In this document: one piece after another, positions 3,094 through 17,123 of the stretch
Numbering within the stretch: position 1 is the stretch's first letter
Layout: each line of letters opens with the position of its first letter
Assembly: GCA_018609755.1 (NCBI GenBank)
Contig: JAHENZ010000260.1
Coordinates: 11,672-75,671, forward strand
Length of the DNA: 64,000 nucleotides
Direction: 5' to 3'
Source of the DNA: Salinivenus sp.
GTDB lineage: Bacteria; Bacteroidota; Rhodothermia; Rhodothermales; Salinibacteraceae
Notes under the pieces: generated by a model
What the model saw: the letters and a program-made list of their open reading frames with translations, nothing else
What the model was told of the DNA's origin: nothing
The model's database searches: none
Made by a program: the position numbers and the translations under genes

Positions 3094-3351
3094 ATGGCAC
3101 ACAAAAAAGCAATGGGGTCGACCCAGAACGGTCGCGACTCCAATCCCAAGTATCTCGGCGTCAAGGCGTATGGTGGTGAGTTTGTGGACGCCGGCAACAT
3201 CATCGTGCGGCAGCGCGGCACGAAGTTCCACCCCGGCCACAACGTGGGGCAGGGCGGCGACGATACGCTGTTCGCGAAGGCGGAGGGCACCGTCCAGTTT
3301 AAGCGAAGCGGCGATCGGAAGTACGTGCACGTGGTGCCGGAAGAGGCCTAA
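3094..3351 (+). CDS. rpmA: 50S ribosomal protein L27
   Basis: [24 protein letters not shown]...[15 protein letters not shown]. Confidence 0.98.
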
Positions 3352-3375
3352 CGTCATTCCACGTTTCGATTTCGC

Positions 3376-3411
3376 AAAGCTCCTGTCGCCTCCGGGCGAG
3401 AGGAGCTTTTT
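3376..3411 (+). terminator. Rho-independent terminator after rplU-rpmA
   Basis: AAAGCTCCTGTCGCC-TCCG-GGCGAGAGGAGCTTTTT, a hairpin followed by a T-run. Confidence 0.8.
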
Positions 3412-3443
3412 GCGTTTGTGCCCGACTCGATCCATTCGGTTTC

Positions 3444-4685
3444 ATGGAGGACTTCTCACCGCAGGACCATTTTCGATTTCCTGACGAGCCGGAGGCCATC
3501 GAGCTCCGTGCCTTTACGCACGGCCTCCAGCCCGCCACGGTGCCCAAAATGATGGAGCACTTTACGGAGGACTGGCGGCGCTTCGGCGTGGATGCCTGGA
3601 ACAAGGTCCCCAATCACTGGCGCCCCGAACACGGAGAGTCGGTCGGATGGTGGACGCTCCCGACCTATCTCGGCGACGAGTTTATCGCCCCCCTCCTCGG
3701 TGCCCCCCAGGGCACCTGCATCCTTCAGCCACACGTTCATTGGACGGTGCAGTGCCTCCTTTCTGCGCCGGAGGTGCGAGATCGAGGCTCCAAAATCGTT
3801 CTGCCAGAGACCGCCTTCCCCTCCGTCCTGCACAGCACGCAGCAGTGGGAAGATCTCCAGTCGTTCCAGGCCTCCATCGTGCCGTCTATAGAAGACGACC
3901 GTGTCGACCAGGCGGCTCTGCTCGACGCGATCGACGAGGACACCGCCATGGTTGCGCTGAGCCACGTGGGCTTTACCACCGGCGCGCGACTGTCGGATGC
4001 GTTCCTCAAGCGCGTGGCGAACGAGGCGCATGCGCACGACGCCCTCGTCCTCATTGACGGCTACCATGCGGCAGGCTCGATGCCGGTGAACGTGACGGAC
4101 CTTGGGTGTGATTGCTACGTCGGCGGCCTGCTGAAAGAGGGCTGTGGCTCGTCCGGAAACACCTTTCTCTACGTCCGCGACGGCCTTCCCCTCACTCCCC
4201 GCCTTACGGGCTGGTTTGGCGATGCGGCCCCGTTCGAGTTTCGGCAAGCGCCCGAACCCCACCCGGACGTCCGGCGCCGCTTCCTGGGCGGCACCGTCGC
4301 CGTGGCGCCTATGTACCACGCCGTCGAGGGCGTGCGAATCCTCTTGGACCTCGGCCTTGACACGGTACGATCACACTCGCTCCACCTAACAGACCTCGCG
4401 ATCCAGCGCGCCGACGAGGCTCAGCTCTCACTTCGGTCTCCCCGCGACCGGGCGGCCCGCAGTGCGATGATTCTGCTAGAAGTCCCGGACGCCCACAAGC
4501 TGACGGCGACCCTCAAGAAGCACGACATCTACACCGACAGTCGTCGGAACGAGGTCGTCCGGATGGCCCCCTTTCTCTGGAATACAGAGGTCGACATCCA
4601 CCGCACCTTCGATCACATCGAGCGCGCTGTCGCCTCCGGCTCCTACCGCGACACGTCGGTATCAGCGTCAGGACCCGTCACCTGA
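3444..4685 (+). CDS. Class V PLP-dependent enzyme, kynureninase-like
   Basis: Motifs LSHVGFTTG, LIDGYHAAG, PLP-lysine region GGLLKEGCG, LTGWFG and RMAP; N-terminus resembles kynureninase. Confidence 0.75.
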   Translation: MEDFSPQDHFRFPDEPEAIELRAFTHGLQPATVPKMMEHFTEDWRRFGVDAWNKVPNHWRPEHGESVGWWTLPTYLGDEFIAPLLGAPQGTCILQPHVHWTVQCLLSAPEVRDRGSKIVLPETAFPSVLHSTQQWEDLQSFQASIVPSIEDDRVDQAALLDAIDEDTAMVALSHVGFTTGARLSDAFLKRVANEAHAHDALVLIDGYHAAGSMPVNVTDLGCDCYVGGLLKEGCGSSGNTFLYVRDGLPLTPRLTGWFGDAAPFEFRQAPEPHPDVRRRFLGGTVAVAPMYHAVEGVRILLDLGLDTVRSHSLHLTDLAIQRADEAQLSLRSPRDRAARSAMILLEVPDAHKLTATLKKHDIYTDSRRNEVVRMAPFLWNTEVDIHRTFDHIERAVASGSYRDTSVSASGPVT

Positions 4686-5593
4686 TCGGTCTCTACAGTG
4701 GGGGCATCCGACTGCGGCGTCGCAGTCCGGTGGCCCGTGCGGGGATCGAGGTGAAAAAATGCCACCAGGGCCGTAAACAGCTCCTCGTGCCGGCGCGCCA
4801 TGCGATGGGGCTGCTCGAAGAACGTCTCAACGGCCACAGCAAAAAATTCGGACGGGGCCTCCGCCGCATACGGCCGCAGAATGGACCGTCCGCGCCGCAC
4901 GCGCTTCATTTCTCGCCGAACGAGCGACTGCCAGTTTCCCGCCGACGCCGGGGCCACGAGGGACGGGACCCCGTCGGCGCCCTCGTTGTCGAAGTCGAAA
5001 AGGTGCGCCAGTTCGTGGAGCACCACATTGTCGGCGTCGCCCGAATCGGCCCAGCTGTCCTTCACCGACGGGGCCGTAAGAATGATTGGGCCTTGCTGGT
5101 GCGCCATGCCGTCGTAGGCAGCATCGGCACTGTCGTAATACTCGTCGTTGAAACGGTGGGGGTAGAACAGGACCGAGCGGCTGCCGGGCAACTCCCAATC
5201 GGGCCGCCCGTGGAGAAGCACCGCCGCTCCCGCCGCCACGCTCAGCCGAAGCACGTCGGTCACAACCACGCCCTGTACGCCCTCGAAGGAGTATTCGTCG
5301 AGAATGAACTGCACGTCGCGCTCAAACCGATCTCGTGCGTCAGCATCAAGCCGGGGATACAGCGGGACGTGGGTTCGGAGCCAGGCCCGGGCGTCCGCCG
5401 GAAGGGCCGTGCGAGCCAGCCGCCAGCGCCGGAACGGTTGCCATAGCCCCACCCCAAGGATGATTGTCGTAGGTACGATCCCCAAAAGCCCCCACCAGGG
5501 CCGTACCTGTAGCCCCACCATCGCCACAGCGCCGCCGACGACGAGAGCGAGCACGATCGTAGCCAGAACCGACGATCGACGAACGATTCGCAT
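4643..5593 (-). CDS. MtfA-like (M90) zinc-dependent peptidase with N-terminal membrane anchor
   Basis: NVVLHELAHLFD (HExxH), LRPYAAEAPSEFFAVAVETFFEQP and two N-terminal TM helices. Start chosen at ATG 5593. Confidence 0.88.
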   Translation of the reverse strand: MRIVRRSSVLATIVLALVVGGAVAMVGLQVRPWWGLLGIVPTTIILGVGLWQPFRRWRLARTALPADARAWLRTHVPLYPRLDADARDRFERDVQFILDEYSFEGVQGVVVTDVLRLSVAAGAAVLLHGRPDWELPGSRSVLFYPHRFNDEYYDSADAAYDGMAHQQGPIILTAPSVKDSWADSGDADNVVLHELAHLFDFDNEGADGVPSLVAPASAGNWQSLVRREMKRVRRGRSILRPYAAEAPSEFFAVAVETFFEQPHRMARRHEELFTALVAFFHLDPRTGHRTATPQSDAPTVETDQVTGPDADTDVSR

Positions 5594-6073: not shown

Positions 6074-8149
6074 ATGGGTGCGATGAACAAGCTGCGGGAA
6101 AATACCGCAGTCATTCTTTGGATTCTGGTGCTCTCGTTCGGCGTCATCTGGACGTTGCAGGACTCCAACGTCTTCGAGTCGATGAATCAGCCGAACCAAA
6201 ACGTGGCGACGGTGAACGAGACGACGATCAGTAACCAGGAGTACAACCAGGCCCTCGACCGACAACGACAGCAGATCAGCCAGCAGATGGACGGGGAAAT
6301 GCCCCCGCGCATGGAGGAGATGGTCCGCCAGCGGGCCTACGATCAGTTGGTCAATAATGCGCTGTTGGAACAGGAGATGGAGCGTCTCGGCATCACAGTG
6401 ACGGACGCCGAGATCGAAGATATGGTCTTTGGAGAGAACCCCCATCCCTTGATCCGCCGTCAGTTTGCCGACTCGACCGGACGGATCAACTACCAACTGC
6501 TTCGCAACATGGCCCAGAATCCGCAGGCCAATCCGCAATTTCTTCAGCTGGAAAGTTTTTTGAGGGAGCAGCGGCGCCAGCAGAAAATGACCTCGCTCGT
6601 GCAGTCGACCATCAACGTTTCCCAGGAGGACGTTGAGGAGTATTATTGGCGCCAAAATGCCTCGGCCTCAGCAGAGTACGTGGCGCTCCGCTACGCTTCC
6701 GTTTCGGATGACTCCATCTCGATCAGCGAGTCGGATCTCCGCTCCTACTACGAGGCGAACAAGGAGGAGTACGAGCGCAAGAAGACGCTGGACATGAACT
6801 ACGTCTCTCTGTCCAAGACGCCGACCGCCGAGGACACGGCGGCCGTTTTGAGCGACCTGGAGGACCTTCGGTCGGACTTTGCCAGTGCCGAGAACGACTC
6901 CCTCTTCCTAGAGCAAAACGCCTCGGAGCGTACCTTCTCCAACACCTTTCAGACGCCGGACCAGATGGACGAGGTCGTTGCAAACGCGGTGTATGAGGAT
7001 CCGTCGCCGGGACGTGTCGCCGGTCCCTTCACGGGCGGAAGTTTGGCGCACCTCGTGAAGATCCTCGACACGCAGCCTGCAGATGGCGAGTACGTCCACG
7101 CCTCCCACATTTTGCTTGAATCCGAGGCGGAAGACCCGGCCCTTCGGCAGCGGCTCCAGTCCATTCGCGACAGCATCGAATCGGGGGCCGCCAGCTTCGA
7201 CGCGATGGCGCGCCAGTATTCGGACGACCAGTCCGCCACCGACGGAGGCGATCTCGGTTGGTTCGGGGAAGGGCGTATGGTGGAGGCTTTTTCGGAGGCT
7301 GCGTTCAGTGCATCGCCCGGTTCGCTCGTCGGCCCGGTCAAGTCTGAGTTTGGATACCACCTGATCCGGGTACATCACAAGGCCTCCCAGGCCGTCAAGA
7401 TTGCGGATCTCGCGTTTAGCCTGAGTCCGAGCCAGGCCACTCTTTCGGACAAGCAGGCGACGCTCGACGACGTTGCATTCTACGCCGAAGACAATAGCTC
7501 CTTCACTGAAGAGGCAGAGCGCCGCGACCTGGAAGTACAGGAGGTCACGGCGGAGGCCGACCAGAGCTCGGTTCCGGGGATTGGCCAGAGCCGCACCCTC
7601 ACCAGCTTCATGGAGTCGGCCAAGGCCGGAAGCATCAGCGACGTGATCGAGCTCGACAATAAATTTGTTCTGTTGAAAGTGAATGAGGTGCAGCCGGAGG
7701 GCTACCGACCCTTTGAAGAGGTGAAGTCCCAGATCCGCCCACAAGTGGAGCTTCAAAAGAAACGAGCGATCCAGACGCGCCGGATGCAGCAGGCCCTCCA
7801 GCAGAACGGATTCCGGCAATTGCCGCAGGTTCTCGGAACGCAGATGCGCTCGCAGTCGGACATCACGTTTAACACGGAAACCGTGCCCGGCGTGGGTCGC
7901 GACCCGGCCTTTTCGGGCACCGTGTTCGGGCTCGACGAAGGGGAAACTTCTGGGGTCGTCGAGGGAGAGAATGCAGCCTTCGTCGTACGCGTGACCTCGA
8001 TGCAGGAGCCGCTGGAACTCACTGCCCAGCAGCGCCAACAGATTCGCCAGAAGCTGCTTAAGCAGCAGCAGCGTCAGGTATCGCAGCAGTGGATCTCGGC
8101 GCTGAAGGAGGACGCGACCATCGAGGACATGCGACAACAGGTCCGGTAA
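6074..8149 (+). CDS. PpiD/SurA-like peptidyl-prolyl isomerase chaperone
   Basis: N-terminal TM anchor, SurA_N-like region, and parvulin motifs HASHILL, GGDLGWF and GPVKSEFGYHLI. Confidence 0.9.
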   Translation: MGAMNKLRENTAVILWILVLSFGVIWTLQDSNVFESMNQPNQNVATVNETTISNQEYNQALDRQRQQISQQMDGEMPPRMEEMVRQRAYDQLVNNALLEQEMERLGITVTDAEIEDMVFGENPHPLIRRQFADSTGRINYQLLRNMAQNPQANPQFLQLESFLREQRRQQKMTSLVQSTINVSQEDVEEYYWRQNASASAEYVALRYASVSDDSISISESDLRSYYEANKEEYERKKTLDMNYVSLSKTPTAEDTAAVLSDLEDLRSDFASAENDSLFLEQNASERTFSNTFQTPDQMDEVVANAVYEDPSPGRVAGPFTGGSLAHLVKILDTQPADGEYVHASHILLESEAEDPALRQRLQSIRDSIESGAASFDAMARQYSDDQSATDGGDLGWFGEGRMVEAFSEAAFSASPGSLVGPVKSEFGYHLIRVHHKASQAVKIADLAFSLSPSQATLSDKQATLDDVAFYAEDNSSFTEEAERRDLEVQEVTAEADQSSVPGIGQSRTLTSFMESAKAGSISDVIELDNKFVLLKVNEVQPEGYRPFEEVKSQIRPQVELQKKRAIQTRRMQQALQQNGFRQLPQVLGTQMRSQSDITFNTETVPGVGRDPAFSGTVFGLDEGETSGVVEGENAAFVVRVTSMQEPLELTAQQRQQIRQKLLKQQQRQVSQQWISALKEDATIEDMRQQVR

Positions 8150-8989
8150 CTACGTGACCTGGAGTGAACCGCGGAAGACCGTGACGACGGGCCCTTCGAG
8201 GTAGCGCTCTTGCCCACGGCTCGTCGTTTCGGTCCCGACGGTGAACGTGCCCCCTTGCGTCTTCACCGTAAGGGGGTCTGCTTCTACCTGTTCGGTCGCC
8301 TGCGCGATGATGGCGGCCGCCAGTACGCCGGTCCCACAGGACAACGTTTCACCCTCTACGCCTTTTTCGTAGGTGCGAAGGTGCAGCGTGTCGTCCTCAA
8401 CCTCGACGAAGTTCACGTTCGCCCCCGGCGGATGCACACGAGCGTCGTGGCGAAGGGGCGGCGCCCACTCCTCGACGGGGACTGCACGTACGTCGGGTAC
8501 GAAGATCACGAGATGGCCGGTACCGGTGTTCACAGAGTGCACAGCCTGGGGACTGAACGGCAGTGTGCCCTCTAACGTCACGTTGAGCTCCAGTTCTGAA
8601 ACCGGCGGTACGTAGAGTCGGACGAGATCCGGCTGATCCGCTACAATGGCCGCATGATAGCGTCCGGCGTCCGTTTCGAATGCCAGCTCCGGCCCCTCAA
8701 AGTCGGCATTGAGGGCAAAGCGGGCCAGACACCGGGCGCCATTTCCGCACATCGTGGCCCAGGAGCCATCGGCGTTGACGTAGCGCATGCGGTAGTCCGC
8801 CCCCTCAGCATCCGTGTCCGTGAGGGCCAAGAGGCCGTCGGCCCCTACGCCGTATCGGCGGCGGCACCACGTGGCGGCGAGGTCGGATAACTCTTCGTCC
8901 GAAAAGCGATACCAGCGGTTGTCGAGAACGAGGAAATCATTCCCTGCCCCGTGCATTTTTGTAAATTCGACGACGAGCGATGGACTCAT
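8150..8989 (-). CDS. dapF: Diaminopimelate epimerase
   Basis: FTKMHGAGNDF, MCGNGARC, NVNFV, RTYEKGVEGETLSCGTG. True start ATG at 8989. Confidence 0.95.
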   Translation of the reverse strand: MSPSLVVEFTKMHGAGNDFLVLDNRWYRFSDEELSDLAATWCRRRYGVGADGLLALTDTDAEGADYRMRYVNADGSWATMCGNGARCLARFALNADFEGPELAFETDAGRYHAAIVADQPDLVRLYVPPVSELELNVTLEGTLPFSPQAVHSVNTGTGHLVIFVPDVRAVPVEEWAPPLRHDARVHPPGANVNFVEVEDDTLHLRTYEKGVEGETLSCGTGVLAAAIIAQATEQVEADPLTVKTQGGTFTVGTETTSRGQERYLEGPVVTVFRGSLQVT

Positions 8990-9257
8990 AAAAATGTATC
9001 GAGCGTTTCTGACTCCAGTGAGCGAATGCCGGCACGATCCGGAAGCGCGGTGCGTATAGGAACCATCCGAACCAATTTTCCGGGCTCTCAAAAGTTGTTT
9101 TGATTTTTCACGCCGGAAACGGATGTTGACAATCGCAGACGCGTCCGTCTTAGTCGTCCCGTACGTGTATTTCGCGTATGATCTGCCCCGGTCGACTATG
9201 TGAACGAGGACGTCTAAACCGAAAAACCATCGTCTTTCTGACAACCCTCCTAACCCG

Positions 9258-10208
9258 TTGCCCGAGAAACAACTGAGCATCGAAGGTACCGACCCGCTTC
9301 TCCTCTTCGGTTTCAACGACGTGTACCTCCGGAAGATCGAAAGTGCCTTTCCGGACACGCACATCACCGCCCGTGGCACCGAGATTCACCTCCAGGGCGA
9401 CGAGGAGGACATCGAGCAGGTCGAGCGCGTATTTAATGAAATGGTGGTCCTGTTGGACCGGAACGAGACCCTCACGGAGGACGACGTTGAGACGGTCCTC
9501 GCCCTCTTCGACTCCGAGGAGCCCGACACGCCGGACGTCGGAGACGCCGAGGCCATTCTCACAACGCCCGAAGACGAGGTGATCAAGCCGCGGTCGCCGA
9601 ATCAGAAGCGACTGGTCCGTTCGGCCCAGTCCAACGACGTCGTCTTTGCCATCGGCCCTGCGGGGACGGGAAAAACGTACGTGGCCGTGGCCATGGCCGT
9701 AGCTGCCCTGAACGAGCATCGGGTCAAACGCATCGTGCTCTCTCGCCCTGCCGTGGAGGCCGGCGAGCAACTGGGCTTTCTCCCGGGAGACTTCTACGAG
9801 AAGGTGGACCCGTACCTGCAGCCCCTCTACGACGCCATCGGGGACATGATGCCCCGCGAGCAAATGGCTGAGTACCTGGAGCAGGATCGTGTGGAGGTCG
9901 TGCCGCTCGCCTACATGCGGGGCCGCACGCTGAAGTCTTCTTTCGTCATCCTAGACGAGGCACAGAACGTGACGACGAGTCAAATGAAGATGTTCTTGAC
10001 GCGCCTCGGGCCGAAAAGCCAGGCGATCATCACTGGGGACATCACACAAACCGACCTCAAGAACCGGAGCGAAAGTGGGCTCATCCAGGTGCAGCATATT
10101 CTGAAGGACATTGAGGGAATCGACTTCATTTACCTTGAGCGCGAGGATGTGGTACGCCACCGGCTCGTGCGGGAAATCATCGCCGCGTACGAAGAACACG
10201 ACGGATGA
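9258..10208 (+). CDS. phoH: PhoH family ATPase (PhoH2/YbeZ-like)
   Basis: GPAGTGKT, SRPAVEAGEQLGFLPGD, YMRGRTL, DEAQN, LTRLG. Confidence 0.93.
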   Translation: MPEKQLSIEGTDPLLLFGFNDVYLRKIESAFPDTHITARGTEIHLQGDEEDIEQVERVFNEMVVLLDRNETLTEDDVETVLALFDSEEPDTPDVGDAEAILTTPEDEVIKPRSPNQKRLVRSAQSNDVVFAIGPAGTGKTYVAVAMAVAALNEHRVKRIVLSRPAVEAGEQLGFLPGDFYEKVDPYLQPLYDAIGDMMPREQMAEYLEQDRVEVVPLAYMRGRTLKSSFVILDEAQNVTTSQMKMFLTRLGPKSQAIITGDITQTDLKNRSESGLIQVQHILKDIEGIDFIYLEREDVVRHRLVREIIAAYEEHDG

Positions 10209-10445
10209 TTGTCCCCGTGTAACAGTTGCGAAATTCGAGAGGCACGTCGGAACGGTCCCTTTCTCAGTAGAATTGGGAAAAGATGTACCCTCTTTAAAAG
10301 TTTGGCTGGGTTCTTGTCGAGACTTCTTTCCACTCATCCGTGCACGCTACGTGCAAGTCTCCACTAAACGATTCCCCCTTGGAAACTCGGGGCCCCTCCC
10401 CCCGATCGCGTCCCGATCTGATCTTTTCTACGCGTAATACGCACC

Positions 10446-12101
10446 ATGGCTGACCGTGACGACTTGCCCCAAGACCTTGCGTGGTATCAGGATCGCTGGG
10501 AGGAAATGATGGACCTTCTCCCCGTCTCCGATCCGGACGACGTCGTCCAGCAGGTGCGGGAACTGCAGGTGAACATGCTGGACGAGGAGGCAGAAACACT
10601 TGATGACATGGGACTTGCGGACGCAGAGGAAGCAAAGACGGTCCTCCGCCGCATTTTCGAACGTCTGCAGCGCCTTCGGCGTGAGAATCAGGACCTTCGA
10701 CGCGCCCAAGAGGCCGTTGGGGCAAACGATTCAGGTGAACTTGTTGAGGCTGTGCAGTCGCTGCAAGAGCGAGTGCACAGCTTCGAGGAGCAGCAGGAGG
10801 AACTCTCCGAGGCCGGCTTCGAGCAGCCCGCTCACGCCCTTGAGGCGCTTAGTAGCATGGAAGAGCAGCTGCAGGCGATGTACGAGGAAAAAGAAGCAAC
10901 CGAGGAGACCGACGTCGATACGGAGCTGAGAATGAAGGGAGACACGTTCGACCAGCTCCAGGCCCTCTTGGCACGCCAGGAGAAGCTTCAGCGCGAGTTG
11001 GGAGTCTCCAGTCCCGACGCCGTCGTGGAGATGGTGGAAGGACTCTCCGATCAGCTCGACGAGTTATACAAGCATCGGGATGACGATCGATCTGCTGACT
11101 CCATTTTCTCTCCCGTCGATCCATCTGCCAGTTCTTCAGAGGACTCACTTCAGGAGGAGATCGGGGCATCGGACCCCGAAACCGTAACCGCGATGATCAC
11201 GAACCTGACCGATCAGCTGGAGGCGTTGTATGGGGAACGCCAACGTCTTGCGGAGCTCGACCTGAACGGCTCCGACGACGCCGTTGAGATGGTGAAGAAC
11301 ATGCAGCTCCAGCTTGAATCGTTGTACGAGCGTCGCGAAAAGCTGTCGGAGCACGGCATTCGCAGCATCAATCATGCCCTCTCCATGATTGAGAATATGG
11401 AGGAACAGCTCAGCGAGATGTACGATGAGCGCCACGAACTGACGACGGAGCAGGGCATTCCGGGTCCGCAAGAGGCTGCAGCCCGGCTTGAAGAATTGGA
11501 AGAAGAATTGTCGACGCTTCTGGAGGAACAGAGCACCCTCCGTGAGAAGCGCGATCAGTTGCAGGCTCAACTCGACGAACTTCGAGACAGGTTGGAGCTC
11601 GACGATCCCAGCGAGATTCCCGACCTCGTCGAGAGCATGGAAGCGCAACTCGAAGAAGCGTACGCGTCGAAGGATGCCTCTTCGACAGTCCCTACGGGCG
11701 ATTCCCCCCAGGGCCCGCTCCTCGACCGCGACACGCGAACTCGACTTGACGACATGACGCCCGACGCCCTGGCGGAACTCCCCATTGCTCTCTTCCACCT
11801 GGAACGCGACGGGACCATCCGGCACGCGACCCCTGACGCGCTACAGTGGCCCGACGTGTCGGTTAACACTCCGGACGCCCTCGTGGGATTGAACTTTTTT
11901 TCCGACGTTGCCCCTGGGACCGAAAACACGCTGTTTCGTGGCCGCATTACGGACGAGCCTGTTCACAGTGAGGTGGACAACCAATTTACGTACACCTACG
12001 TGAGTGGAGAGACCCCCCCAACGAACCTGGAAGTGCAACTGTATTCCTCTCCGAACTCTTCCACCTACTGGCTTGCCTTCTCGGTATTGGAACAGTATTA
12101 G
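10446..12101 (+). CDS. Helical-repeat/coiled-coil protein with C-terminal PYP-like PAS domain lacking the chromophore Cys
   Basis: About 10 copies of a ~32-aa repeat. C-terminal ~125 aa match the neighbouring PYP (VGLNFFSDVAPGT..LFRGR..FTYTY..YW), with Gly at the Cys69 position. Confidence 0.8.
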   Translation: MADRDDLPQDLAWYQDRWEEMMDLLPVSDPDDVVQQVRELQVNMLDEEAETLDDMGLADAEEAKTVLRRIFERLQRLRRENQDLRRAQEAVGANDSGELVEAVQSLQERVHSFEEQQEELSEAGFEQPAHALEALSSMEEQLQAMYEEKEATEETDVDTELRMKGDTFDQLQALLARQEKLQRELGVSSPDAVVEMVEGLSDQLDELYKHRDDDRSADSIFSPVDPSASSSEDSLQEEIGASDPETVTAMITNLTDQLEALYGERQRLAELDLNGSDDAVEMVKNMQLQLESLYERREKLSEHGIRSINHALSMIENMEEQLSEMYDERHELTTEQGIPGPQEAAARLEELEEELSTLLEEQSTLREKRDQLQAQLDELRDRLELDDPSEIPDLVESMEAQLEEAYASKDASSTVPTGDSPQGPLLDRDTRTRLDDMTPDALAELPIALFHLERDGTIRHATPDALQWPDVSVNTPDALVGLNFFSDVAPGTENTLFRGRITDEPVHSEVDNQFTYTYVSGETPPTNLEVQLYSSPNSSTYWLAFSVLEQY

Positions 12102-12187
12102 CTTTCCTGATCTCCCCCATGCACATTACTCACGCTTCCCGCCCTCTGTACTAACCGTACTCCACTCATAGCCTCCCTTTCGTGACT

Positions 12188-12736
12188 ATGCCTGAACAAG
12201 AAGACACTGATCCCGACACACAGGAGTCTTCCCTCCTCGATACTGAGACCCCTGAGCCTGATTCCTCATCTGATTCCTCTTCCTCATCCGACGACGTGAC
12301 GACTCCTACGGGCGCCTCCTCGGACGAGAACGACCAATCGGAGATTGCTGAGACATCCGACATCGACGATCTTCATTTCGAGGACGAGAACCTCGCAGAG
12401 AAGCTTCGTCACGCCGACGACGATCAGCTCGACAACGCTCCCTTTGGGATCATCAAAGTAGACGATGAGGGGAAGGTCGAGTTCTTCAATCAGTACGAGG
12501 CGGAGCTAAGCGGCATGGACCCAGACGAGGTCGTGGGCCGCAACTTCTTTACGCAGGTCGCCCCTTGCACGAACAACCGGCTCTTCCGGGGTCGCTTCAA
12601 GAAGGGGGTGCGCCGTGGCGAGCTCGATGAGACCTTTACGTACACGTACACCTACAAGATGCGGCCAACCCTCGTGGACGTGCACATGTACCGCGACGAG
12701 ATGGGGCAAAACTGGATTACCGTGCAGAAATACTGA
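12188..12736 (+). CDS. pyp: Photoactive yellow protein with acidic N-terminal extension
   Basis: Manual ungapped alignment to H. halophila PYP: QLD.APFGII.VD..G, N43, E46, GRNFFTQVAPCT (Cys69 = TGC 12566-12568), FRGRFKKGV, TYKMRPT.V.VHM, W119. Confidence 0.95.
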   Translation: MPEQEDTDPDTQESSLLDTETPEPDSSSDSSSSSDDVTTPTGASSDENDQSEIAETSDIDDLHFEDENLAEKLRHADDDQLDNAPFGIIKVDDEGKVEFFNQYEAELSGMDPDEVVGRNFFTQVAPCTNNRLFRGRFKKGVRRGELDETFTYTYTYKMRPTLVDVHMYRDEMGQNWITVQKY

Positions 12737-12863
12737 GTCCCTGCGCGCCCTCTCGATGGTACCCAAACAAATCCCCCCGCCCGCGGCATGATCTGAAGAA
12801 ATGATTTCATACAGCCGCTAGCGTCCGCCCCCGTGCCTGTTTTTCGGACGTTCTCTCGATACC

Positions 12864-13934
12864 ATGATTAGATCACATTCTTCTTCCCTTAGAGCCCAGA
12901 CGTTTCTGGAAACGGTCCTGGAGGAGTTCGACGCGTCGGATCCGGAGGAGGCCCTTCAATTACTCCGACGCATGAAAAAATTGCTCTCACAGTACTACCA
13001 GGAGCGGAAGACCCTCCAATCCCTCGGATTGGAGACCCTTGACGACGCCCTCGACGTGATGATGGCGATGCGGCGACGCGTCGAGACCCTGGAGGAACGG
13101 CTCGATGCGTACCAACAAGCGCAGGAAAAACTACACGCCATCCAGAATGCTCTCGACGTCGAGGCGAACGCCGAAGAGACGGTCAAAACAATTACAAACA
13201 TCAGTCAACAGCTCGAAACGCTGTACGAAGAAAAAGAAGTTCTTTCCCGGGCCGGCCTGACGGACGCCAATGAGGCCGTCCACATGATTCAGTCCATGCA
13301 GGAGCAGCTCGATCACTTGTATGAAGATTCAGAAGCAGCAGCCGACGCCTCGAACGACGCTTTTGCGCTGCTAGAAGAGAAGTTGGGCGTCTCGGATCCG
13401 GAATCGGTGATTCAGATGGTGGAGAGCATGGAAGAGCAGCTTACCTCCCAAACGGAAGCCCCTTCCGACGCTCGGGCCTCGTCTCCTCCAACGGTGAATA
13501 CCCTCGAACGTCAGCTCCTTGCGTTGCAGGAAGGGGACGTAAACATTCCAACAGATGAGTTTGCAACTCTCATTCCCTTCGAGGACCTCCAGCACCTCAG
13601 CGAGCGGGCGCCCGACGATTTGAATTCCTTCGACGTCGGAATCCTCGCGGTGGATGATGCCGATCAGATTCAGGCCGCAAACGACTATCAGCCGTCCGTC
13701 CCTGGACTGGGAGACAACCCGGTCGGCACCTCTCTTTTCGACCAGGTGCCCGCCTCTCGCAACCCCCTCCTTCAACTTCCCCTCCAGACAGCTCGCCAGA
13801 ACGAAGTGCTGGATGCTCGCCTCTTCTACACGTTTCCCCATCCCGCGGACGACGGATCCCCACTTCCGGTAAAGCTCCAGTTCTACCGATCAGAGATCAA
13901 TACAGTAACTTGGCTTCTGTACTCGCCCCTGTAA
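12864..13934 (+). CDS. Helical-repeat/coiled-coil protein with degenerate C-terminal PYP-like domain
   Basis: Five copies of the same repeat as 10446-12101. C-terminus has DVGILAVDD..QIQAANDYQ, PVGTSLFDQVPASRN, FYTF and terminal W; Ser at the Cys69 position. Confidence 0.72.
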   Translation: MIRSHSSSLRAQTFLETVLEEFDASDPEEALQLLRRMKKLLSQYYQERKTLQSLGLETLDDALDVMMAMRRRVETLEERLDAYQQAQEKLHAIQNALDVEANAEETVKTITNISQQLETLYEEKEVLSRAGLTDANEAVHMIQSMQEQLDHLYEDSEAAADASNDAFALLEEKLGVSDPESVIQMVESMEEQLTSQTEAPSDARASSPPTVNTLERQLLALQEGDVNIPTDEFATLIPFEDLQHLSERAPDDLNSFDVGILAVDDADQIQAANDYQPSVPGLGDNPVGTSLFDQVPASRNPLLQLPLQTARQNEVLDARLFYTFPHPADDGSPLPVKLQFYRSEINTVTWLLYSPL

Positions 13935-13999: not shown

Positions 14000-15550
14000 A
14001 TGTGGACCAGCGCCTCCCCAAAATCATCGCCCTCCCCTCACGCATCGGGGACTGCTACGTCTGGGGCCGTCGTGAAGGCAGTCCAATCTGCTCTCAATCA
14101 GTGCCCCACTCCCGGAGAGTCCTCCGACGTCAATCCCTGGCATGACCTCTTGTACGACCGGCTCCGGGACGAAGCCCTCCCTGCTCTCATTTGCGAAGAC
14201 ACGATCACCCCCGCGGCGTCGCTCTGGACCGGTTCGCGTCTCTGGACGCAGGCCTTCCGCTCCACAAATCTCCGCGCTGGGGACCGGATTGTTCTTGCGC
14301 TGCCTCCCTCTACGGCGTTCGTACAAGTTCTCGTTGCCGCCCTCTGGGAGGGCTTCACGATCGCCCTGGCCCCTCCCTCCAGCGACGTCGAGGCGCTTGC
14401 GGAATTGCTTGATGCCCGCGCTACGGTGACGACTGAAGCCCACGCTTCTCCCGATCCCGACGTTCCCGCCTTCCTCTCCGAGGAGTACGCCGGCCCCCGC
14501 TCGACGCCCGACACCCTTCGCACGGCGAACACCCCTCCCACTCCGAACGTGCGGTTTCTACTCCGCACGTCGGGGACGACCGCTCACGCTCGCTGGGTCG
14601 CCCTCTCCGATCGAAACGTCCTTTCAGTTCTGGCGAGTCACCTTCCGCACTTCACCCTTCGCGATTCCCGGGTGCTGTCTGTTCTGCCCTGGACCCACGC
14701 CTTTGGCCTCGTGCTCGATTTCTTTCCCGCACTTCTTTCCGGGGCCGAGATCATCCGAGACCCACAGGGTGGACGGGATCCCGAGCAGCTGATTCAGCTT
14801 CGCAACGCCTGGGGAGCAACGCACCTGTCGGCCGTCCCCCTCACCATCCAGCGCCTCACGGACACGTCCGGGGGCACGGCCCTGCTTCGCGACCTGCAAG
14901 GTGGCATCGTTGGGGGCGCGCCCGTGTCGGGGCCGCTCGCCGAGCAATTGTCCGAGACGGCCCTCCGAGCCGGCTACGGCCAAACCGAGGCCGCGCCCGG
15001 AATTGCGCTCGGCCCACAAGGAAAATGGGCCGCGCACTACATGGGTCAACCGGTCGGATGCTCGGTGGAGATTTCAGGGGACGGAGAACTGCTGTTCGAA
15101 GGCCCAAACGCCTGTGTCGGCTTTTGGCGCGACGGTGCCCTGGACCGAGCCGACCCCGACCGAACCGTCCACACGGGCGACCTGGTCGAGCGCTCCGGAG
15201 ACGATCTGTATTTTCGAGGGCGCAAGGACGATGCATTTAAACTGTCGAACGGTCGCTGGGTGCAGGCCGGCGCCACGGAAGCCGCCCTCAAGACCTCCTT
15301 CCCGGATCTGCGCGACGCACTCGTCTTTACCCCGAATGGAACCGACGTCGCCGTGGCCCTCTGCCCAGACGCCTCCGACGCCTCTCTTCCGTCTCGAGAA
15401 GAGATCCAATCGGCCCTCGGATCTCTGGCAGAGCGGCTCGTGTGGACCCCCACGATTGCCCCCGACGCCTGGACTACACTCGCAAAGGGGTCGGTAGACC
15501 GAAGCACCATGACGGAGACGCTCTCGGAGGCGTACTCGTCCTCCTCGTGA
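14000..15550 (+). CDS. pcl: AMP-binding acyl-CoA ligase, probable p-coumarate:CoA ligase for PYP chromophore activation
   Basis: Adenylation motifs LLRTSGTT, LPWTHAFG, GYGQTEA, TGDL and FRGRKDD. Position between pyp and tal supports the substrate call (inference). Confidence 0.78.
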   Translation: MWTSASPKSSPSPHASGTATSGAVVKAVQSALNQCPTPGESSDVNPWHDLLYDRLRDEALPALICEDTITPAASLWTGSRLWTQAFRSTNLRAGDRIVLALPPSTAFVQVLVAALWEGFTIALAPPSSDVEALAELLDARATVTTEAHASPDPDVPAFLSEEYAGPRSTPDTLRTANTPPTPNVRFLLRTSGTTAHARWVALSDRNVLSVLASHLPHFTLRDSRVLSVLPWTHAFGLVLDFFPALLSGAEIIRDPQGGRDPEQLIQLRNAWGATHLSAVPLTIQRLTDTSGGTALLRDLQGGIVGGAPVSGPLAEQLSETALRAGYGQTEAAPGIALGPQGKWAAHYMGQPVGCSVEISGDGELLFEGPNACVGFWRDGALDRADPDRTVHTGDLVERSGDDLYFRGRKDDAFKLSNGRWVQAGATEAALKTSFPDLRDALVFTPNGTDVAVALCPDASDASLPSREEIQSALGSLAERLVWTPTIAPDAWTTLAKGSVDRSTMTETLSEAYSSSS

Positions 15551-15605: not shown

Positions 15606-17123
15606 ATGTCGTCTCCCACCGCCCTCTCCGTTGGCCCCGACGTCACGCTCACGTGTGAGGATCTCGAACGAGCCGCACGCACGAGCGGCGTCCGGGTAGA
15701 GCCAACCTCGGAAGCCCGAGATGCGCTTGAATCGGCGCGGACGGCGCTTGATGACCTGCGGGAGGACGGCGCTCCTATCTACGGGGTAACGACTGGATTT
15801 GGCCCTCTGCACGAGCACGACGCGGAGACGACCGATGCGATCGCCCAGGGCAAAGGGCTGATCGCCCATCTCGCCACCGGCAGCGGCGATCGTCTGTCCG
15901 CCCCCGTCGTGCGGGCCATGATGTTGTCGCGCCTTCAAACGCTGGCGCAGGGCCATTCCGCGATTCGGCCAGAGGCATTTACGGCCGTCACGAACCTTCT
16001 TCGCCACAACCTGATCCCCGCCGTCCCTGAAATCGGCTCCCTGGGCGCGAGTGGTGATCTGACGCCGCTGGCGCACGTGGCACGGGTCTGCACGGGAACG
16101 GGTACCGTCGTGTCGGAGGACGACACGCTCCGCGATGCCGACGATGCCCTCACCGACGCCGGGCTCTCCCCCGTTTCGCTCGACGCCCGCGACGCATTGG
16201 CCCTCGTGAACGGAACCGCCCTCATGACGGGAACCGCGTCTCTCGCGGTAGCACAGGGGGACCGCCTCCTCACTCGTGCGGAGGCCCTCACGGGATGGGC
16301 GTACCGCCTCCTCGGCTGCTCGCTAGAGCCGCTCGACTCGCGACTGCACGAGGCCCGCGGGCACGACGGCCAGTCGAAAAGTGCGGGTGCCATTCGCGAG
16401 GAGGCAACCCGCCATGGCCCCGCCGAACGGGAGGCCCGCCCCCTTCAAGAGGTATACTCACTCCGCTGCGCCCCCCAAATTCTCGGGGCCGCTCGGGATC
16501 AGCTGCAGTACGTGCGCCGGCAGGTCGAAACGGAATTGAATGGGGTGACCGATAATCCCGTCTTCGACCCGGACGCCCCCGCGGCCCTCCACGGCGGCAA
16601 CTTTCAAGGGCAACAGATCGCCTTCGCTGCCGATGCTCTCAACGAAGCCCTCACGCAGATCGGCGTGCTGGCCGAGCGGCAACTCGACGTACTTCTCTCT
16701 CCCGACCAGAATGACGGGGCGCCTCCCCTCCTCGCCTGGGAGCCCGGTCCTACGAGCGGCCTCGCCGGTGCGCAACTCACCGCCACGGCCCTCGTCGCCG
16801 AACTTCGTCAAAACGCTCAGATGGCGGGCACGTCCTCCATCCCGACAAATGGTGACAACCAGGACGTCGTCTCGATGGGGGCCCTGGCGGCCCGCACCGC
16901 TCACGAGCAGACCGATCACCTCTCTTCCATCCTCGCCATCCTGGGAATTGCCCTGGCCCAGTTGACACACCTGCGGAACGAAGGGCAAGCCGACGGGCCG
17001 GCCCCTCCCCTTCCCGACTGGATGCCGACCATCGATCCCGTGGTGGAGGACCGATCGCTCCATTCCGAAATCGACGCCCTCGCCACTCGCTGGCGCCGAT
17101 CCGGCGATTCGCAGGCCCCCTAA
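15606..17123 (+). CDS. tal: Tyrosine ammonia-lyase (aromatic amino acid lyase family)
   Basis: YGVTTGFG, MIO-forming GASGDL, NGT, QEVYSLRC and DNP. Specificity loop LIAHLATG carries the HL signature of TALs rather than SH (HAL) or FL (PAL). Confidence 0.87.
   Translation: MSSPTALSVGPDVTLTCEDLERAARTSGVRVEPTSEARDALESARTALDDLREDGAPIYGVTTGFGPLHEHDAETTDAIAQGKGLIAHLATGSGDRLSAPVVRAMMLSRLQTLAQGHSAIRPEAFTAVTNLLRHNLIPAVPEIGSLGASGDLTPLAHVARVCTGTGTVVSEDDTLRDADDALTDAGLSPVSLDARDALALVNGTALMTGTASLAVAQGDRLLTRAEALTGWAYRLLGCSLEPLDSRLHEARGHDGQSKSAGAIREEATRHGPAEREARPLQEVYSLRCAPQILGAARDQLQYVRRQVETELNGVTDNPVFDPDAPAALHGGNFQGQQIAFAADALNEALTQIGVLAERQLDVLLSPDQNDGAPPLLAWEPGPTSGLAGAQLTATALVAELRQNAQMAGTSSIPTNGDNQDVVSMGALAARTAHEQTDHLSSILAILGIALAQLTHLRNEGQADGPAPPLPDWMPTIDPVVEDRSLHSEIDALATRWRRSGDSQAP

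Follow-up and report, generated by a model that had tools for sequence, protein, structure and literature searches.

The PYP locus and its gene array

We analyzed a stretch of 64,000 nucleotides from Salinivenus sp. (GenBank assembly GCA_018609755.1, contig JAHENZ010000260.1, positions 11,672 to 75,671 of the forward strand), hereafter the window, in which the gene for photoactive yellow protein (PYP) lies between two genes for proteins with a helical repeat of 32 amino acids (aa). All positions below are those of the window unless another locus is named. The repeat defines a protein family that has not been described previously and that is rare, coherent and linked to PYP.

Five plus-strand open reading frames (ORFs) of the window follow one another in the order A, B (pyp), C, pCL and TAL, with intergenic gaps of 55-127 nt. 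ORF A (10446-12101) codes for 551 aa, comprising a helical-repeat region (aa 1 to ~420) and, at the C-terminus, a PYP-like domain that lacks the chromophore cysteine. ORF B (12182-12736; 184 aa) is a true PYP with an acidic N-terminal extension and the chromophore cysteine in FFTQVAPCTNN. Scans against Pfam and NCBIfam matched it to TIGR02373 (E = 3e-35) and also to PF00989, while a scan with a hidden Markov model (HMM) of the repeat unit found no units in it. ORF C (12864-13934; 356 aa) has a shorter helical-repeat region, followed by a more diverged PYP-like domain with Ser in place of Cys (LFDQVPASRN). Both repeat proteins are acidic (20-24% Asp+Glu). An AMP-binding ligase (14000-15550, plus strand; PF00501, E = 8e-29) starts 65 nt past C, and an aromatic amino-acid ammonia-lyase follows (15606-17123, plus strand; PF00221, E = 7e-138). 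Judging by their sequences, these are likely the expected PYP chromophore genes, coding for p-coumarate-CoA ligase (pCL) and tyrosine ammonia-lyase (TAL). The gene order, including pCL, is seen again in relatives.

Repeat units in A and C

The original prediction, made from this DNA alone, had described a helical repeat occurring about 10 times in A and five times in C. We found the repeat in frame in both ORFs, and these counts fit the canonical units taken together with the weaker ones. According to the seed HMM, A has six canonical units (43-53 bits, starting at aa 122, 184, 238, 270, 302 and 382) and about five degenerate ones, with weaker units starting at aa 24, 54, 90 and 335. C has three canonical units (25-54 bits, at about aa 98, 129 and 174) and two degenerate ones (aa 21 and 52). 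The motif [MLIV]xx[QR][LV]xx[LMAV][YF] is present in six copies in A and two in C, and a G-x-[SD]-[PDA] turn precedes every copy by some 16 residues.

In A, an N-terminal motif conserved among homologs (DLxWYxxRWxELMDLL) is followed by three degenerate units (aa 24-55, 54-85 and 90-121; 10515-10808). These are weak HMM matches for which AlphaFold2 predicts helices at residues 30-54, 60-91 and 96-122, each of them preceded by a turn (for example V-S-D-P, G-L-A-D or G-A-N-D). The first two canonical units are aa 122-153 (EAGFEQPAHALEALSSMEEQLQAMYEEKEATE; 10809-10904; 46.5 bits; predicted helix 128-162) and aa 184-215 (ELGVSSPDAVVEMVEGLSDQLDELYKHRDDDR; 10995-11090; 49.4 bits; helix 190-215). The next three are contiguous and have an exact period of 32 (aa 238-269, 270-301 and 302-333; 11157-11444; 48.8, 49.6 and 53.1 bits); their helices (244-270, 276-302 and 308-336) are predicted in the same way when the three units are modeled alone. 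A further degenerate unit, again a weak HMM match (aa 335-366; 11448-11543), merges into a longer predicted helix (341-383), and the last canonical unit (aa 382-413, RLELDDPSEIPDLVESMEAQLEEAYASKDASS; 11589-11684; 43.5 bits) corresponds to helix 388-412. The array in C begins with two degenerate units (aa 21-52 and 52-83; 12924-13112), the first scoring 5.9 bits and the second recognized by eye only (QSLGLETLDDALDVMMAMRRRVETLEERLDAY). Two contiguous canonical units come next (aa 97-128 and 129-160; 13152-13343; 45.3 and 53.5 bits), both recovered by an HMM derived from A only. The last unit (aa 173-204; 13380-13475; 24.6 bits) holds the consensus only over its first 21 residues (LGVSDPESVIQMVESMEEQL), the L-Y half being gone.

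The claim that a single true repeat is common to both proteins flanking PYP is borne out by cross-validation. We searched the 46,335 six-frame ORFs of the genome with an HMM built from the six units of A. It detected C (E = 2.9e-20) and, with E = 1.5e-37, an open frame of 961 aa that lies on a different contig (C232); there was no further match in the genome, the next best ORF having an E-value of 3. In the reverse direction, an HMM of the C units detected A at E = 1e-25. The highest score among 500 shuffles of A was 6 bits, as against 90 bits observed.

Anatomy of the 32-residue unit

We compiled 838 distinct units from homologs. Their consensus, E-L-G-V-S-D-P-D-x-A-[LVI]-x-M-[IV]-E-S-[ML]-E-x-Q-L-x-x-L-Y-E-E-R-E, agrees with the one proposed originally, and the modal spacing of units is 32 aa. 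Q20, L21 and Y25 are present in ~98-99% of the units, a figure inflated by the selection of units according to HMM score. The sequence logo shows hydrophobic positions 10, 14, 17, 21, 24, 28 and 31, that is, the 4-3-4-3 spacing of a canonical heptad coiled coil, although each helix accommodates only ~3 heptads before the Gly/Pro turn.

AlphaFold2, run with a 50-sequence alignment, models each unit as one unbroken amphipathic helix of ~27 residues and a five-residue G-x-S-D-P loop, and the N-terminal 420 residues of A as ~13 such helices. Within the turn, S/D-P-[DE] has the form of a typical N-cap, here for the next helix. The models are thus in line with the earlier description of a helix closed by a turn in every unit. 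When modeled alone, the three canonical units of A gave a predicted local distance difference test (pLDDT) score of 61 and a predicted template modeling (pTM) score of 0.36.

Comparison with known families and folds

The repeat family carries no database annotation. We compared A, C, the short members of the family (mini proteins) and the best multi-unit match (771 aa) with Pfam and NCBIfam, and obtained only sub-threshold coiled-coil noise. The repeat therefore matches no known Pfam or NCBIfam family, in line with the original prediction, which had set it apart from TPR, HAMP and other familiar repeats. Precomputed annotation assigns PF27977 to two of the 113 homologs of A. At E <= 1, there was no TPR or PPR Pfam match for A, C or the mini proteins, and no HAMP or MCPsignal match for A or C in Pfam or NCBIfam; nor do A and C contain an MCP, HAMP or kinase module according to the same databases. 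We considered the alpha-solenoids of the TPR, PPR and TALE type, which have two helices per unit of 33-35 aa. AlphaFold2 predicts the unit analyzed here as a single helix, without a break or kink at the conserved G/N/S position 16 ahead of M-E-x-Q-L, and having one helix per unit rules out these architectures.

Searches of PDB sequences with the rod region found nothing (best E = 0.44). A Foldseek search with the full model of A retrieved PYP structures only, matched through the C-terminal domain, and the low-confidence three-unit model had no PDB match at E <= 0.001 (best E = 0.9). The helical bundles of spectrin, EzrA and SNARE Habc domains do resemble the repeat in their long (~27-residue) amphipathic helices, a/d heptad spacing and short turns. 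Three-helix Habc bundles come closest to the three-unit model (TM-score 0.5-0.6), but the model is of low confidence and the match is not significant. The spectrin repeat does not match this low-confidence model either (Foldseek E = 7.3, TM-score 0.20), and its period is 106 aa per three helices as opposed to one helix per 32 aa. Moreover, the PYP-linked repeat has two features of its own, the G-x-S-D-P cap and the invariant Q-L-x-x-L-Y, which set it apart from all three kinds of bundle.

Distribution of the family

An HMM search for the distribution of the repeat and its linkage to pyp, which had been proposed as a way to check the prediction, returned a coherent family linked to PYP across lineages. 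The repeat is not specific to the window locus, a point that the original prediction had missed, and is PYP-linked in several phyla. We searched 1.84 billion cluster representatives with a profile of ten window units and found only 349 at E <= 1e-3, including 34 at E <= 1e-30. The number of units ranges from one to ~16, and the proteins reach 1,200-1,290 aa. Nearly all of the long matches end in a PYP-like domain, while many matches are short (47-280 aa, one to seven units) and have no PYP domain. For full-length A we found 113 relatives, none from outside hypersaline metagenomes and Salinibacter-like genomes. In ~70 of the 95 relatives with E <= 1e-62, the positions of the six units are conserved, and shorter or more distant relatives hold three to five of them.

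Named matches assign the window genome to Salinibacter. Matches are present in 21 of 24 other genomes of that genus, and the three genomes without one are 59-71% complete. C is restricted to a narrower lineage, with a clear ortholog (54% identity) in only one of 40 related genomes; full-length A-type proteins (E <= 1e-80) are found in seven. The window genome itself has a second repeat-PYP pair, at the C232 locus detected above (L009; G000:C232:22000-38000). There, a rod protein of 935 aa, counted from its ATG (7901-10708, minus strand), has about six recognizable units and a PYP-like domain with a Cys-to-Ser replacement (DLAPSTNN). Directly after it comes a true PYP of 195 aa (7147-7734, minus strand; ELAPCSNN). 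The C232 pair has no pCL or TAL beside it, and its pyp is flanked on the far side by an OmpR-type response regulator.

Three of the matches were rejected. P0096, an apparent fusion of FtsZ and five units (L040 748-2454), is almost certainly an assembly chimera: there is a step in GC content around the join (~0.50 to ~0.62-0.69), a shared G-F-D/E-Q-P string coincides with the join, and the reading frame is broken close to the end, before the PYP-like domain. P0200 (950 aa) shares no more than the EQLxxLY half of the motif, and neither pyp nor pCL lies within 5 kb of it; therefore, partial-motif matches near E = 1e-10 were not considered family members. P0216, a PPR match from a plant, is a false positive.

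Linkage to pyp and pCL

Members of the family are encoded beside pyp and/or pCL, or else are fused to a PYP-like domain without the cysteine. At least five bacterial lineages have a repeat protein adjacent or fused to PYP. Among eight short members without a PYP domain that we examined in their genomic context, six adjoin or lie near a Cys-bearing pyp. P0157, P0172 and P0141 are each directly followed by a Cys-bearing PYP of 121-124 aa; next to P0150 is a second repeat protein, with PYP, pCL and TAL ~1.5 kb downstream. P0148 has an HDOD protein and a pCL-like gene as neighbors and no pyp on its 8.6-kb contig, while the contig of P0170, also counted among the eight, is too short to judge. The six also include a member from a Leptospiraceae metagenome-assembled genome (MAG; L020), which encodes two tandem pairs, each made up of a mini protein (90 and 71 aa) and a Cys-bearing PYP, and then pCL. 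The sixth is a 59-aa two-helix protein, after which come a 123-aa PYP and pCL (L021; 33 sequence blocks and 24 contigs read).

A pattern search of DNA that used the motif alone (M-E-x-Q-L-x-x-L-Y, then Q-L-x-x-L-Y-x-E 32-33 residues on) in one genome per GTDB species gave 10 loci, compared with ~0.02 chance matches expected. They belong to four Bacteroidota MAGs, Longibacter, two Leptospiraceae, a Deltaproteobacteria MAG, a 'Rickettsiales' MAG and a Chthonomonadales MAG. At all 10 loci, pyp adjoins the repeat gene, and most of them also have pCL and TAL. Two loci with an adjacent pyp (L030 and L036) have no pCL within the stretch examined. In non-halophile pairs, the isoelectric point (pI) of the repeat protein is 4.0-4.8 in four of five cases and 6.2 in the fifth, as against 8.6-9.5 for the cognate PYP.

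The output proteins near the repeat-PYP core differ between loci, being HDOD-HD in two cases and GAF-PAS-MCP in one (L025 4647-5729, L028 4609-5784 and L026 7110-9068).

PYP-like domains without the chromophore cysteine

The C-terminal domain of A (11721-12098) is a PYP-like PAS domain with Gly at the position of Cys69 (FFSDVAPGTEN) and, by alignment to PDB structures, Ala in place of Tyr42 and Gln in place of Glu46. Its PYP/PAS fold is indicated by AlphaFold2 (pLDDT ~97), by a TM-score of 0.83 to PYP structures and by phmmer matches to PDB PYP chains (E = 6e-10). The match to TIGR02373 (41 bits) lies below the cut-off of 143. The domain of C, in which the cysteine position is occupied by Ser, is linked to PYP solely through A and the PYP profile of the locus, and has neither a TIGR02373 match nor a direct PDB match.

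Loss of the cysteine, which leaves the domain unable to bind chromophore, is a general feature of the rod-fused domains. In 99 of them, the Cys69 position is Ala (36), Gly (33) or Ser (25) in 94 cases and Cys in only one. The single Cys comes from P0108 (L041 1034-3103), where it lies in the true PYP domain of a 689-aa chain that combines a helical region, a Cys-less PYP-like domain (DVAPGTNN) and a true PYP (QVAPCTNN). The family would thereby explain the many Salinibacter entries named 'photoactive yellow protein' that are 450-1,290 aa long and have no chromophore cysteine. The P0108 contig is short (3.3 kb) and has another PAS gene upstream. The rod protein of a relative (L019 of G009:C6; 5414-7312, minus strand) retains the cysteine in its C-terminal PYP-like domain (DLAPCTCTPLFRGRF); it is followed by a PAS-PAS histidine kinase (3202-5178, minus strand), possibly the classical type of output for this lineage.

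A putative PYP-binding adaptor or scaffold

Taken together, the features of A and C suggest a repeat family that works with PYP as a putative PYP-binding adaptor or scaffold, an assignment derived from sequence and genomic context to which we would give an even chance of being correct. It is suggested by the co-duplicated pairs of repeat protein and PYP (mini proteins in the Leptospiraceae MAG, rod proteins in the window genome), the fusions, the variable number of units and the conserved Q/Y face on an otherwise ordinary heptad helix, and also by the opposite charges of the acidic repeat protein and the basic PYP in non-halophile pairs. A conserved core with changeable outputs would likewise fit an adaptor. 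Under this scheme, the helices would be the part that contacts PYP. Neighboring helices would pack as antiparallel hairpins or bundles whose conserved Q/L/L/Y face is turned toward PYP or toward the chain's own PYP-like domain. A rod with many units, such as A, might thereby serve as a multivalent adaptor or scaffold, bringing PYP molecules together or connecting PYP to different outputs, with the C-terminal Cys-less domain possibly pairing with, or substituting for, true PYP.

Photosensors with helical partners are known from other systems. The pairing of sensory rhodopsin with its transducer Htr and of LOV2 with the J-alpha helix is comparable in function only; in the PYP-linked family, the photosensor gene lies beside that of a helical partner and the two are co-duplicated. 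Signaling by PAS domains commonly involves a helix that docks on their beta-sheet and is released from it. Another relevant case is the PYP-binding protein PBP of Rhodobacter capsulatus (RCAP_rcc01067), reported to bind a light-generated state of the basic PYP (pI 3.9 versus 9.4; bioRxiv 10.1101/2021.06.01.446672). Like the repeat proteins, PBP is a small acidic protein whose gene lies beside pyp, and the charge split is similar to that in four of the five non-halophile pairs. Unlike them, it is described as a protein of 142 aa in which beta-sheets come after N-terminal helices. No Rhodobacter protein occurs among the named matches of the repeat family.

Several observations weigh against the adaptor or scaffold assignment. 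In two complete Salinibacter genomes (G013 and G017), the only form of the family is a mini protein of 97 aa, consisting of the N-terminal DLDWYxxQW motif and one unit (L014 4478-4954, minus strand; L015 3635-4327, plus strand). Its gene immediately precedes pCL, whereas pyp is found at another place in the genome (in G013 at a distance of 186 kb), so that the tightest link there is to the ligase. The packing of the helices of A is not confidently predicted (pTM 0.35 for the full protein). Two surveys of PYP genome context (PMC9664959 and PMC12826048) list kinases, GGDEF/EAL proteins, MCPs, phytochrome, V4R, pCL and TAL as neighbors and mention no coiled-coil or repeat protein, though both relied on annotated domains. 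Finally, gene neighborhood cannot separate a signaling partner from a maturation or localization factor. One of the two surveys places the PYPs of Salinibacter and Leptospira together in clade B, which fits the taxa that carry the repeat family.

A more specific version of the adaptor proposal is that the helix, minimally a hairpin of 57-59 aa, is a light-dependent docking element that passes on the PYP signal, and that rods such as A and C are light-switchable multivalent scaffolds. We put this forward tentatively, considering it doubtful rather than probable. The rods would assemble several PYPs, together with their own Cys-less PYP-like domain, into a higher-order signaling body, and the proposal would cover the PYPs of Salinibacter, Leptospiraceae, other Bacteroidota and more. 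First isolated in 1985, PYP is among the most intensively studied photoreceptors. Passages in papers from 2021 to 2026 still call its signaling partner unidentified. The repeat family is a testable candidate for that partner and, if docking is indeed light-dependent, would supply the partner that has been missing since the isolation of PYP. The pair of a 59-aa protein and a 123-aa PYP would in that case also make a very small optogenetic dimerizer. Should binding not depend on light, the family would still be a new kind of helical repeat with a clear genomic marker.

Alternative explanations

The arrangement in the two complete Salinibacter genomes, where the mini gene precedes pCL and not pyp, could mean that the repeat proteins help holo-PYP to mature rather than act as its signaling partner. 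They would work with pCL, either presenting apo-PYP or holding p-coumaroyl-CoA for transfer. The presence of pCL at most loci, and of a pCL-like gene without a visible pyp at the P0148 locus, points the same way. We consider a maturation helper unlikely. Holo-PYP, including that of S. ruber, can be made in Escherichia coli with TAL and pCL alone; a range of 1 to 16 units and an attached PYP-like domain are not expected of such a helper; and pCL is absent from the examined stretches at L030 and L036, where pyp is adjacent.

The original prediction had favored a polymerizing or oligomeric rod. In a self-assembling rod or filament of this kind, coiled coils would form between chains and the PYP-like domain would merely decorate or regulate a cytoskeleton-like polymer. 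This agrees with the heptad pattern of the helices and their long arrays (up to 16 units in proteins of 1,200-1,290 aa). The lack of confident packing in the AlphaFold2 monomer would also be expected if the partners are other chains. Nevertheless, members with two helices in 57-59 aa or one unit in 97 aa are too small for a rod, and the occurrence of such small hairpins in a PYP-linked family points to PYP-related binding more than to a filament. Gly/Pro turns break the helices every 32 residues, the sole apparent fusion to FtsZ is the assembly chimera rejected above, and a general cytoskeletal role leaves the strict linkage to pyp unexplained. A polymer of this kind thus appears quite improbable.

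We also considered a gas-vesicle binder resembling GvpC, through which PYP would control buoyancy. GvpC is built of 33-residue helical repeats, and the 32-33 aa period of the PYP-linked family is similar, as is its tandem helical nature; the sequences do not match. The gas-vesicle genes gvpA and gvpL/F lie beside two repeat-PYP loci outside Salinibacter (L027 3616-3819, minus strand; L029 883-1626, minus strand), but most loci are without gvp genes, and A, C and the mini proteins have no match to a Gvp family in Pfam. No GvpA homolog was found in the window genome either with PF00741 or by phmmer with a GvpA sequence, which largely excludes a GvpC-like role in this genome and leaves it highly improbable for the family. 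Chance likeness or compositional bias among acidic halophile coiled coils, to which the 20-24% Asp+Glu and the weak spurious coiled-coil Pfam matches might have pointed, is refuted by the cross-validation (E = 1e-20 to 1e-37, and no other match in the genome) and the shuffles (<= 6 bits), the members in non-halophiles such as Leptospiraceae also speaking against it, so that the absence of any real family is next to inconceivable.

Other features of the repeat-PYP loci

A third unannotated family, here labeled X, recurs in the same PYP loci. It consists of proteins of ~140-167 aa with the core YIELKxHWxxLNTQxNYQ and has no Pfam or NCBIfam match. We located it at L009 11007-11510 (plus strand), L020 9038-9538, L025 3725-4638, L026 6587-7027, L027 4443-4859 and L029 5965-6459, as well as at L031, L033, L034 and L038. 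The window genome has X at the C232 locus only and not in the window, while at the Chthonomonadales locus (L038) X is fused to repeat units. A search yielded 239 relatives, and those that are named come from Salinibacter, Myxococcota and Leptospiraceae; the best 120 of these matches, inspected for a possible identity of X with PBP, include no Rhodobacter protein.

In the Leptospiraceae MAG, both mini proteins and X (L020 6001-6273, 6939-7154 and 9038-9538) share a similar basic tail (KEIVIQGPKKIIVRK, QIIIQGAKKIIIRK and KEIKIFEPKKVVIKK, respectively), which may be a shared docking strand. L027 encodes two large repeat proteins (523 and 421 aa) whose variant units contain Trp (NWExxL).

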